From Escherichia phage vB_Eco_F31, in the sequence record OP870147.1: 64,000 nucleotides of DNA; one strand, 5' to 3'. Of the stretch, positions 15,996 to 52,918 are shown one piece after another. Numbering within the stretch: position 1 is the stretch's first letter; each line of letters begins with the position of its first letter. The notes under the pieces were generated by a model. The model had not been told where the DNA came from. It saw nothing but the letters and a program-made list of their open reading frames with translations, and made no database searches. The position numbers and the translations under genes are program-made.

Positions 15996-16083
15996 AAATC
16001 ACCATTATAAATAATATCAAAATAATTAGCAGAGACTCTGTCTCCGACCAGATGTTTAATTTGAATGGATAGAACCTAGATTC

Positions 16084-18752: not shown

Positions 18753-18765
18753 GATATTTCCTCAT

Positions 18766-18773
18766 TATAAATA
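18766..18773 (+). promoter_or_regulatory. T4-type late promoter (TATAAATA) for uvsW
   Basis: Exact TATAAATA 30 nt upstream of uvsW ATG. Confidence 0.5.
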
Positions 18774-18802
18774 TAACTATATTTATTACATGGTAATTTG
18801 AC

Positions 18803-21548: not shown

Positions 21549-21947
21549 TTACACTCTATTGCTTGACGCTAACTGAAGTTTAATTTGTTCAATATCGTCA
21601 GGGTTGTCTACGACCGAAAATCTAATCTCTACTATAACCGTATAGTCATCATATACTGGCGTTACACTTACAGAAAGTTTGTCGATGCGTGGCTCATAGT
21701 TACGAACAGCTGCCTGGATATTACGCTCAATCGTATCGGCTGTAAGTGGTGTCATGTTCTCGAAAAGTTCATCGACCAAATCACATCCAAATTCAGGGTC
21801 GAAGGGGCGTGAGCCTTTTCTAGTTGTCACTATGCCAAGAAGACTATTTTTAATAGAACGAAGTCCTACAGAACGAGCAACGTCCTTGTTCCAATCCATA
21901 CGCATTTCTGGGTCGATATCTGAATAAAGTTTATTGATATTAGACAT
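21549..21947 (-). CDS. 25: baseplate wedge protein gp25
   Basis: 132 aa, same length as T4 gp25; directly downstream of gene 26 (ATG overlaps its stop). Confidence 0.85.
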   Translation of the reverse strand: MSNINKLYSDIDPEMRMDWNKDVARSVGLRSIKNSLLGIVTTRKGSRPFDPEFGCDLVDELFENMTPLTADTIERNIQAAVRNYEPRIDKLSVSVTPVYDDYTVIVEIRFSVVDNPDDIEQIKLQLASSNRV

Positions 21948-22573
21948 TATAGTAACTCAAAGAATTCTTTGAGGCCTCGTATTGTGTGAACGTGTGACGC
22001 CCCACATTTGGGACATTTAATAGGGGTTGCTAGATAAATTGATGGTGATACTAAAAGATTTTTAATATTGATCATGTCATCTTCCGTTATAAGGCCATAA
22101 AGGTCGTTTATTTCTGCTTCAGTTAAATCTTCAACAGGGATGGACTCTCCATTGACAAAAACGGCCTCAATACATGAAGCAATCATTAATGCGATATTTT
22201 TATCGTCAAATAATTTAGGTTGACGGAACTTAATTTTAATACCGCTGAACGAATACCAGGGATCGGCCTGTTCATCTAATTGAGTGTGCAATAAATTCAT
22301 ATAGACTTGAAATGAATGCCCACAGGAACAATTCCAGGTGTGTTCTTGATTCACTTCACCTAATGAATGGGCCCACAGATTTACCAACAATAGCTCGGCT
22401 TCTTGTTTAGTCAAGTTTTTAGCGTTAGAGCAATTAGTGATAATATTGTTCACTGCTGATTCAATAGTACCGGTAGCCCGTGCACCTATGAGTCCTAAAT
22501 ATTCTTTTAAAGTAAAGGCTCTACAATTCACTTCTTTATCGCCTAAACGTACGGTAAACGTATATTTGTACAT
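21947..22573 (-). CDS. 26: baseplate hub protein gp26
   Basis: 208 aa, same as T4 gp26; divergent from gene 51. Confidence 0.8.
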   Translation of the reverse strand: MYKYTFTVRLGDKEVNCRAFTLKEYLGLIGARATGTIESAVNNIITNCSNAKNLTKQEAELLLVNLWAHSLGEVNQEHTWNCSCGHSFQVYMNLLHTQLDEQADPWYSFSGIKIKFRQPKLFDDKNIALMIASCIEAVFVNGESIPVEDLTEAEINDLYGLITEDDMINIKNLLVSPSIYLATPIKCPKCGASHVHTIRGLKEFFELL

Positions 22574-22591
22574 GTTAACTCCTTTATTGTG

Positions 22592-22599
22592 TATTTATA
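22592..22599 (-). promoter_or_regulatory. T4-type late promoter (TATAAATA on minus strand) for gene 26
   Basis: Reverse-complement TATAAATA 19 nt upstream of gene 26 ATG, overlapping the plus-strand late promoter. Confidence 0.45.
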
Positions 22600-22603
22600 A
22601 ATA
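22596..22603 (+). promoter_or_regulatory. T4-type late promoter (TATAAATA) for gene 51
   Basis: Exact TATAAATA 18 nt upstream of gene 51 ATG; part of palindrome TATTTATAAATA. Confidence 0.5.
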
Positions 22604-22620
22604 ATAGAAAAGGAGTAATT

Positions 22621-23373
22621 ATGGCTAATATAATTCGTTGTAAATTACCGGATGGTGTTCATCGTTTTAAGCCGTTCACTGTGGCGGATTATAGAGACTT
22701 TTTACTAGTTAGAAATGATATCGAACATCGTTCGCCGCAAGAACAAAAAGAAATAATTGCCGATCTGATTGATGATTATTTTGGCGAGTACCCTAAAACA
22801 TGGCAACCATTTATATTCCTGCAAGTTTTTGCAGGCTCTATAGGCAAAACAAAAGTTCCCGTTATTTTCACTTGCCCTAAATGCTCTAAAGAAAAAACTG
22901 CACCATTTGAGATATATCAAAAAGAACTAGTCGAACCTGAACTTGATGTTGCTGGTATAAAAATACGTTTTTCTTTCCCTGAAAAGTTTTATGACAACAA
23001 GGCATTAATGATAAGTGAAAACATAAAAGAAATATATTATAATGACAAATGGTACCCATGGAATGATTTGACTGAAGAGAACCAAATCCAAGTAATAGAA
23101 GCAATAGACATTGACTCGCTCGAGAAGGTTATTGCTTCTATGAACCCTATTAATTTGACCCTTAGATTAGGTTGTTGTGAACGTCATGTTAAAACATATA
23201 CTGATATCTTAGAGGTTTTTAAATTGTTAGTTAACCCTGATGAGATTTTTACATTCTATCAGATAAACCATTCACTGGTAAAGAGTCAATACACATTGGA
23301 TTCTATTATGCAAATGATTCCTGTTGAACGTGGTATTGCTTTAACATTAGTAGAAAAGGACCATAAAAAATGA
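22621..23373 (+). CDS. 51: baseplate hub assembly catalyst gp51
   Basis: 250 aa; synteny 26<->51-27-28-29 as in T4. Confidence 0.8.
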
Positions 23374-24542
23374 AAGTATTCCAACGTCCAGGATATCCTA
23401 ACTTAAGCGTTAAATTATACCAAGATTATTCGGCTTGGCAAGAAAATAGATACGTTGAACTCGCTGCAACAATAACAACTTTAACCATGCGAGATTCGCT
23501 ATATGGAAGAAATGAAGGGATTCTTCAATTTTATGACACTAAAAACATCCACACTAAAATGGACGGTAGACAGATAGTTCAAATCTCTGTTTCAAATTCA
23601 AACACACCTCTCCAAGTTAGAACTCGAATTTATGGATGTAGACATTATTCTGTGTCTGTGGACTCAAAAGGTGACAATATTATTGCAATTGAGCTTGGAA
23701 CAATACATTCTATAGAGAACCTTAAATTTGGGCGACCATTCTTCCCGGACGCAGGCGAATCTATACGTGAAATGTTAGGTGTCATATACAAAGACCGTGC
23801 GTTAATTACTCCGCCAATAAACACTATTAATGCTTATGTTCCTGATATCCCTTGGACAAGCACATTTGATGATTATTTGGCATATGTCAGAGAATTAGGA
23901 CTTGCTACAGCGAGTGATAAGTTCGTATTCGTATGGCAAGATATTTTAGGCGTAAACATGATTGACTACGATACTCTTATTGGTCAGGAAGGCATTAAGA
24001 TGATTGTAGGTGAGCCAAATACTGTAGGTCAGTATATTCAAGAGCTTGAGTATCCATTAGTATGGGATTTCACCTGGATGACTAAAGCCAACCAATTTAC
24101 AAGAGACCCTATTAAAAACGCCACGATATTCGCTCATTCATTTTTAGATACATCTATTCCGGTTATTGTTACAGGCGATGGTGATAATGCTATTGTTGTG
24201 TCAAGATCAGGTGGATATTCCGAAATGACCTATCGTAATGGATTTGAAGAAGCAAGTCGTCTTCAGACAATGGCTCAATATGACGGATATGCTAAATGCA
24301 CTACTACAGGTAATTTTAACATAACGCCTGCTACTAAAATTATATTTGTTGACCAAAAGAACCAATTCAAATCCGAATTTTACGTGGATGAAGTTATTCA
24401 TGAGTTATCAAATAACAACTCACAAACTCATCTGTACATGTTTACCAACTCAATGGTGTTAGAACCTGTTAACCCAGTTAAGGTTAAAAATGAACTTAAA
24501 TCTGATTCTACCTCTAAAGAAAATAATTCTACCACAGTCTAA
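23370..24542 (+). CDS. 27: baseplate hub protein gp27
   Basis: 390 aa; size and position match T4 gp27. Confidence 0.85.
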
Positions 24543-25023
24543 TAAAAAGGTAATGATTCCTAAATTAGGGCTTAAACATTATAATCTTTTAAAGGACGTT
24601 AAAGGTCCTGATGAAAACATGAAAATCTTAGCTGATTCTATTTGTAAAAATATGAGTCCCGCAGATTTTGATTTTGCATGTCTACATATATTGGAATTTA
24701 ATAACAAACTTAAGTCTGAAGTTGAAAAAGACGGATTCACATATAAACTAGATGACGTCTATGTATGCCAACGAACAGAATTCCAATTCCAAGGCAATAC
24801 TTTTTATTTTAGACCTCCAGGCAAATTTGAACAATTCGCTACAATCAGTGAAATGCTATCAAATTGCTTAATAAAAGTTAATGACGAAGAGAAAGAAATT
24901 TCTTTCCTTGAGATGCCTGCTTTTGTAATCAAATGGGCAGAAGACCTTTCGACAACTATTGCTATTCCAGGCCCTAATGGTCCTATTAAGGGTATAGCAG
25001 AAATTATTGGATTGCTTGAATGA
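24490..25023 (+). CDS. 28: baseplate hub distal subunit gp28
   Basis: 177 aa, N-terminus [12 protein letters not shown] as T4 gp28; overlaps the end of gene 27 by 53 nt. Confidence 0.8.
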
Positions 25024-37401: not shown

Positions 37402-37525
37402 TTTAAATTCTCAATTCGAGATAATATTTAGTAGCCACGTTCGTCTGAATTTCACCTTCTTTCGACAAGTCTCTCAGTTGTAGGCTACCGCTTAGAAGAG
37501 TGTTCTCTTCATATAGTTATTTATA

Positions 37526-52802: not shown

Positions 52803-52918
52803 TATATTTACCTTTATTTAGATTATTTAATTTATTTACAGTTGGTTGCTACGACACTTATACCTCGTAGCTGGTATGATTTATTTATAAAGTAATTTTA
52901 ACACACAAGAAATAAAGC

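Follow-up and report, generated by a model that had tools for sequence, protein, structure and literature searches.

A palindrome between baseplate hub genes 26 and 51 of Escherichia phage vB_Eco_F31 as a probable compact bidirectional late promoter

Introduction

The junction between genes 26 and 51 of bacteriophage T4 is the closest described counterpart of the locus reported here, with the same two genes in the same orientation, the same 12-mer TATTTATAAATA, and the same distance of 17 nt to the gene 51 ATG; phage T2 shares the 12-mer and this distance as well. The gap is 50 bp long in T4 and T2 compared to 47 bp in our phage, the T4 flanks differ at many positions, and 21 nt rather than 18 nt lead to the gene 26 ATG in T4. 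Transcripts from this T4 pair, described as overlapping promoters that drive the base plate gene cluster divergently, were reportedly mapped by Scarlato et al. in 1989 (Virology 171:475), and Gruidl et al. are said to have extended that work in 1991 (Virology 184:359). No promoter feature is annotated at the 26/51 site in the T4 GenBank and RefSeq records. A T4 dRNA-seq data set has been deposited (GEO GSE255091).

In phage RB69, the gap at 118623–118669 matches positions 22574–22620 of the DNA examined herein base for base, and the element itself carries no difference. The two phages are separate Mosigvirus isolates whose surrounding genes are ~99% identical. Nolan et al. 2006 (PMC1524935, Additional file 5) list two RB69 late promoters, Pl:118620 on the plus strand (score 12.7) and Pl:118672 on the minus strand (score 11.2), and both of these 43-bp promoter windows fall on the 26/51 gap, centered on its two late boxes. 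The feature described below is therefore already known, in that it is the Mosigvirus copy of a T4-family promoter pair that had been predicted in RB69 before.

Late promoters of this family are defined by a box at positions −13 to −6, with transcription starting ~6 nt past the box, usually at an A (PMC1524935, PMC2988020). The bases between box and start are A/T-rich, and in vivo these promoters require gp55, gp33, gp45, and DNA replication. T4 late promoters function without an activator-binding site and rely instead on the gp45 clamp, which tracks along the DNA and has to agree with the promoter in polarity; correspondingly, the activating DNA break must be in the nontranscribed strand (PMC2988020). 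The gp55 holoenzyme melts the DNA from −12 to +2 and reads flipped nontemplate bases at −12, −9, and −8, and in the activated complex gp45 occupies the upstream end (PMC7892883).

Compact bidirectional promoters have also been described for the σ70 holoenzyme, where symmetric −10 elements overlap on opposite strands and the two starts lie 7–25 bp apart (Warman, Forrest, Wade and Grainger, bioRxiv 10.1101/2020.01.31.928960). Below, we compare the 26/51 junction of vB_Eco_F31 with each of these systems and with its orthologs in related phages.

Results

The window analyzed, a 64,000-nucleotide stretch of sequence record OP870147.1, derives from a Mosigvirus, and the region of interest is ~99% identical to those of phages mar005P1, APCEc01, and RB69. 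Minus-strand gene 26 and plus-strand gene 51 diverge from each other, and the 47-bp gap between their start codons (22574–22620) reads GTTAACTCCTTTATTGTGTATTTATAAATAATAGAAAAGGAGTAATT. The proteins encoded by the two genes are paralogs that align colinearly from the N terminus (BLASTP, 24% identity, E = 9e-10), and both are described as hub assembly chaperones in a review of T4 tail assembly. Genes 55, 33, and 45 lie outside the window.

A preliminary description of this locus had reported a palindrome, TATTTATAAATA, with one copy of TATAAATA on each strand. Both its coordinates and its wording proved exact when the sequence was read directly and examined by pattern search, and the 4-bp overlap of the two 8-mers was likewise borne out, with bases 22596–22599 common to both (Table 1). 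The joined 8-mers make up a perfect 12-bp palindrome at 22592–22603. The 8-mer is enriched in the window, with 18 copies compared to 7.1 ± 2.6 expected (none of 100 shuffles reached 18). The 12-mer occurs as a single exact copy in the 64 kb, where 0.01 would be expected and 1 shuffle in 100 contained one. A T4-type late promoter is recognized by a TATAAATA box at −13 to −6, does not need a −35 element, and has close behind it, in the same orientation, a late gene for virion structure or assembly. The box is exact on both strands of the gap, and gene 51 and gene 26 occupy the corresponding downstream positions.

Table 1. Positions of genes, predicted promoter elements, and translation signals at the 26/51 junction
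Feature	Position	Strand	Basis and remarks
Gene 25, baseplate wedge	21549–21947	−	PF04965; downstream of gene 26 in the minus-strand late unit
Gene 26, baseplate hub / hub assembly chaperone, 208 aa	21947–22573	−	PF12322 T4_baseplate, full length; gp26 in near-identical phages
Shine–Dalgarno AAGGAG, gene 26	22579–22584	−	5 nt before ATG 22573; starts at ~+3 of predicted mRNA; left arm of inverted repeat I1
Predicted start, gene 26-25 late unit	22585–22587	−	Equivalent position is A (minus strand) in 21/25 relatives
Late promoter box P26, TATAAATA at −13 to −6	22592–22599	−	Pattern search; RB69 prediction Pl:118672(−) on same bases
Palindrome TATTTATAAATA	22592–22603		Two late-promoter boxes back to back, 4-bp overlap; same in T4, T2, RB69, and 25 distinct orthologous gaps
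Late promoter box P51, TATAAATA at −13 to −6	22596–22603	+	Consensus and position from PMC1524935; RB69 prediction Pl:118620(+) on same bases
Predicted start, gene 51-27-28... late unit	22609	+	A, 6 nt past box; placed by spacing rule of PMC1524935; A in 24/25 distinct orthologous gaps
Shine–Dalgarno AAGGAG, gene 51	22610–22615	+	5 nt before ATG 22621; starts at ~+2 of predicted mRNA; right arm of inverted repeat I1
Gene 51, baseplate hub assembly protein, 250 aa	22621–23373	+	PF12322 T4_baseplate, full length; gp51 in near-identical phages
Genes 27 and 28, hub subunits	23370–25023	+	Downstream of gene 51 in the plus-strand late unit

The distances from box to ATG, 17 nt for gene 51 and 18 nt for gene 26, had been considered suitable for late promoters, and this assessment agrees with the values in T4 (17 and 21 nt) and in other relatives (15–24 and 17–33 nt). 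They are nevertheless shorter than the 24–30 nt that separate the remaining intergenic TATAAATA sites in the window from their ATG codons. On the plus strand, the box is followed by ATAGA and then by the A at 22609 that is the predicted start. On the minus strand it is followed by CACAA, and the canonical +1 position (22586) is a T with an A on both sides, for which reason the estimate for the gene 26 start is given as ±1 nt. The predicted starts, 22609 and ~22586, are 23 bp apart, and the leaders predicted from them would be just 12–13 nt long with AAGGAG almost at their beginning.

The translation-initiation regions of the two genes mirror each other, forming 15-nt arms that are 80% complementary. 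Because the Shine–Dalgarno and ATG regions are arranged in this manner, the whole 53-bp unit at 22571–22623 is a quasi-palindrome. Both predicted transcripts begin outside the central palindrome, which would therefore not be transcribed from P26 or P51, and on this basis an RNA-level role for the palindrome was rejected. Scans of the entire window with Rfam and tRNA models gave no matches. A scan for σ70 promoters and terminators yielded no −35/−10 pair, nor anything else, centered on the palindrome, and a weak hit at 22605–22634 was the only match in the vicinity.

At the junction of genes 26 and 25 (21947–21990, minus strand), the stop and start codons overlap in the sequence TAATG. Upstream of the gene 25 start is a GAGG, followed by a perfect hairpin, CTCAAAG-AATT-CTTTGAG. 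This arrangement fits the “split” Shine–Dalgarno sequence of T4 gene 25 (Nivinskas 1999; Malys and Nivinskas 2009, summarized in PMC3014915).

To compare orthologous loci, 26/51 junctions were gathered from 17 phages in GenBank and 54 contigs in IMG/VR, and the gaps were read. All 12 bases of TATTTATAAATA are unchanged in 25 distinct orthologous gaps that represent at least 11 genera (Tequatro-, Mosig-, Karam-, Gelderland-, Gapriver-, Kagamiyama-, Jiaoda-, Kanagawa-, Hadassah-, Lazarus-, and Muldoonvirus), and the columns flanking the 12-mer in these gaps hold 0.1–0.5 bits, with 0.1–0.4 bits in the four nearest positions on each side. These 25 gaps were selected for carrying the 12-mer, and thus the informative aspects of the set are the number of independent lineages and the sharp edge of conservation.

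Several relatives depart from this arrangement. Aeromonas phages (44RR, 31, and Tulanevirus) carry a palindrome that is two bases shorter, TATTTAAATA, and no late promoter was predicted at the 44RR 26/51 gap by Nolan et al. 2006 (PMC1524935). In Pseudomonas phage PspYZU05, the boxes of the 26/51 gap are face to face with 7 bp between them. Krischvirus (RB49-like) phages have a clean match in the plus-strand box only, and the minus-strand candidate reads ACTAAATA. In RB43-like and Slopekvirus phages, the cluster is rearranged such that gene 27 is transcribed in one direction and 28-29-48-54-51-26-25 in the other, with a terminator preceding gene 51; the resulting divergent 27/28 junction contains TATTTA-C-TAAATA.

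Citrobacter phage Margaery, which is RB43-like, provides an example of this last layout (56333–71055). Its gene 27 is inverted and diverges from 28-29-48-54, after which come a terminator and genes 51-26-25 in tandem, and the 27/28 gap holds CTATTTACTAAATAG, in which TAAATA cores stand back to back with 1 bp between them.

Two late-promoter-like cores thus usually persist where the palindrome does not, which points to two promoters rather than to the dyad as a binding site. The conserved feature is therefore that two late boxes stand where the hub cluster diverges, and not the dyad as such.

Discussion

We propose that the palindrome serves as a compact T4-type late promoter working in both directions, and we assign this reading a probability of approximately 0.9. 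The preliminary description had likewise viewed the locus as overlapping, divergent late promoters of baseplate hub genes, and the evidence gathered here supports that view, with gp55-type promoters serving the operons of genes 26 and 51. Both strands carry the exact consensus, the 12-mer does not vary among 25 gaps whose flanks drift, and an A is usual at +1 on both sides. In addition, the independent predictions of Nolan et al. 2006 place a late promoter on each strand of the RB69 gap, which is identical. Some features count against the proposal, including the short distance of 17–18 nt compared to 24–30 nt elsewhere, the T at +1 on the minus strand, the ACTAAATA sequence of Krischvirus, and the lack of a predicted promoter in 44RR.

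At late times of infection, the host RNA polymerase, equipped with the phage's sigma-like protein gp55 and with gp33, would open the DNA at TATAAATA, with the gp55 polymerase reading the box as single-stranded nontemplate DNA. Dependence on gp55 is assumed for vB_Eco_F31 because of its near identity to RB69. The RB69 clamp is 81% identical to the T4 clamp (PMC2988020). Initiation at the plus-strand box (22596–22603) would start the gene 51-27-28... hub operon at ~22609, and initiation at the minus-strand box (22592–22599) would start the gene 26-25 operon at ~22586. With these positions as +1, the transcription bubbles are expected to extend over 22597–22610 for P51 and over 22585–22598 for P26. 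The two −12 positions, 22597 and 22598, are neighboring base pairs.

In this geometry, the upstream part of each open complex, which includes gp33 and gp45, would cover the other promoter and its downstream DNA. Because each complex would sit over the other promoter, both presumably cannot coexist on one DNA molecule. The earlier suggestion that the two promoters may be mutually exclusive per template can therefore be regarded as a sound structural inference, provided that it is taken to mean that one direction would be used per DNA molecule at one instant. Given that clamp polarity must match the promoter, P51 and P26 would also be served by oppositely oriented gp45 clamps loaded from breaks in opposite strands. 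This bears on the accompanying claim that the genes are co-activated from a shared element. The claim stands with regard to timing but not with regard to a common activator site, which T4 late promoters do not have (PMC2988020) and which the opposite clamp polarities also argue against.

One possible elaboration is that the palindrome acts as a replication-coupled direction switch, wherein the strand bearing a nick or Okazaki junction would select either 26-25 or 51-27-28-29... for each copy of the DNA. The choice would then depend on the direction of the fork or on which daughter duplex is read, and the precise 4-bp overlap would have been retained in order to impose an either/or decision and to balance the two arms of hub assembly. 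Established clamp polarity and the steric geometry of the two complexes lend some support to this scheme. We nonetheless consider it unlikely, and the other spacings observed in relatives (the 10-mer, the face-to-face boxes, and the 1-bp spacer) indicate that the exact overlap is not obligatory.

Other explanations for the palindrome must be weighed against two functional promoters. Perhaps one box alone is active and the other is a by-product of an A/T-rich, nearly self-complementary consensus, in which case the gene behind the inactive box would be expressed from elsewhere, as gene 26 might be via read-through of minus-strand transcripts. The 8-mer is indeed partly self-complementary, so that a reverse copy requires just four more fixed bases, and the minus-strand box is degenerate in Krischvirus. 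Moreover, early and middle transcription in T4 runs in the direction of gene 26 (PMC2988020). However, the bases that belong to one strand's box only (22592–22595 for the minus strand and 22600–22603 for the plus strand) are all invariant in the 25 distinct gaps, the A at +1 is conserved on both sides, and rearranged relatives keep two boxes. Pattern search also revealed no second exact late box upstream of either gene 26 or gene 51. A single functional box is therefore, in our estimation, very improbable.

Even less probable is that the dyad itself is what selection maintains, for example as an operator for a phage protein that binds A/T-rich DNA as a dimer, such as DsbA, and that would determine how strongly or in which direction the hub genes are expressed. 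A perfect 12-bp palindrome within the 53-bp quasi-palindrome has the form expected of such a site, and DsbA binds A/T-rich sites that overlap two late promoters (PMC2988020). However, relatives without the dyad keep two late boxes that are nonpalindromic or differently spaced, and the mirrored Shine–Dalgarno and ATG regions are sufficient to explain the outer symmetry. In addition, DsbA binds with low (micromolar) affinity and its gene is nonessential (PMC2988020). Finally, the palindrome could be a relic kept by inertia. An inverted duplication long ago would have produced the paralogous genes 26 and 51 along with their promoter, and the palindrome would mark its axis. The colinear, head-to-head paralogs and the mirroring of their translation-initiation regions about the same center are compatible with such an origin. 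However, RB43-like phages carry 51-26-25 in tandem in a single orientation and have a similar back-to-back pair at 27/28, and thus the head-to-head layout is not tied to the duplication. A neutral remnant would also not remain invariant while flanks only 1–4 bp away vary freely, which makes the relic hypothesis scarcely credible.

The likeness between the 26/51 element and the σ70 bidirectional promoters of Warman et al. is that divergent starts, predicted ones in the case of 26/51, flank −10-type elements that overlap on opposite strands. The predicted start-to-start distance of 23 bp at 26/51 also coincides with one of the enriched classes among the σ70 examples. In contrast, recognition at 26/51 would be by gp55 through an 8-bp box without a −35 element, and activation would come from a polar sliding clamp rather than involving σ70. 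Furthermore, reciprocal stimulation in the σ70 system proceeds via a contact between R451 and position −18, for which there is no demonstrated gp55 equivalent. Recognition by the σ70 holoenzyme defines the class of Warman et al., and the motif at 26/51 is instead a gp55 late box with no σ70 pair centered on it. Hence, the 26/51 element would work like members of this class without being one.

A different arrangement of paired late boxes appears elsewhere. In the window, the gap at 18753–18802 is a candidate second bidirectional late promoter. It is bounded by a minus-strand gene of 222 aa, which its position suggests is inh-like, and by a 504-aa helicase gene (uvsW), and it carries TATAAATA at 18766–18773 on the plus strand and AATAAATA, a common A(−13) variant, at 18780–18787 on the minus strand. 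These boxes are face to face with 6 bp between them, their predicted 5′ ends cross by ~6 nt, and 27–29 nt lead to the ATG codons. In T4, segE is inserted in the counterpart of this gap. The RB69 gene 4/53 gap (80627–80687) similarly has a plus-strand box on the left and a minus-strand box on the right with 7 bp between them, like the 26/51 gap of PspYZU05, and promoters were predicted on both of its strands by Nolan et al. 2006 (PMC1524935).

All three face-to-face pairs resemble the 26/51 element of vB_Eco_F31 in placing two opposite-strand late boxes in a short divergent gap with late genes on both sides. They differ in that their boxes are 6–7 bp apart and their predicted 5′ ends cross by a few nucleotides, whereas the 26/51 boxes stand back to back, share 4 bp, and have predicted starts that are 23 bp apart. 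Because the face-to-face layout recurs, it seems that divergent late genes in T4-like phages are served by either of two recurrent geometries.

As a discovery, the 26/51 element matters little, given that the pair was previously predicted in RB69 and that its T4 copy was reportedly mapped by Scarlato et al. in 1989. Its modest usefulness lies in offering a clean and compact natural bidirectional promoter in a system where activation, by a sliding clamp, is polar. The 12-mer, the 10-mer, the 1-bp spacer, and the face-to-face pairs could also be used as a series of natural spacing variants for studies of promoter interference with gp55 polymerase. In the annotation of T4-like genomes, the element dependably marks where the two late operons of the baseplate hub begin.

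Exact TATAAATA copies also occur outside long open reading frames at 16006–16013 (plus strand), 37518–37525 (minus strand), and 52882–52889 (minus strand), with no start codon of a long open reading frame within ~45 nt downstream. These may be late promoters with long leaders, promoters for small unannotated genes, or chance matches.

Within the plus-strand unit, the longest gene 28 open reading frame begins 53 nt inside gene 27 (24490–24542), as in the T4 annotation. In APCEc01, the gene 28 start is annotated later, past the gene 27 stop codon, and the position of this start is therefore inconsistent among Mosigvirus records.
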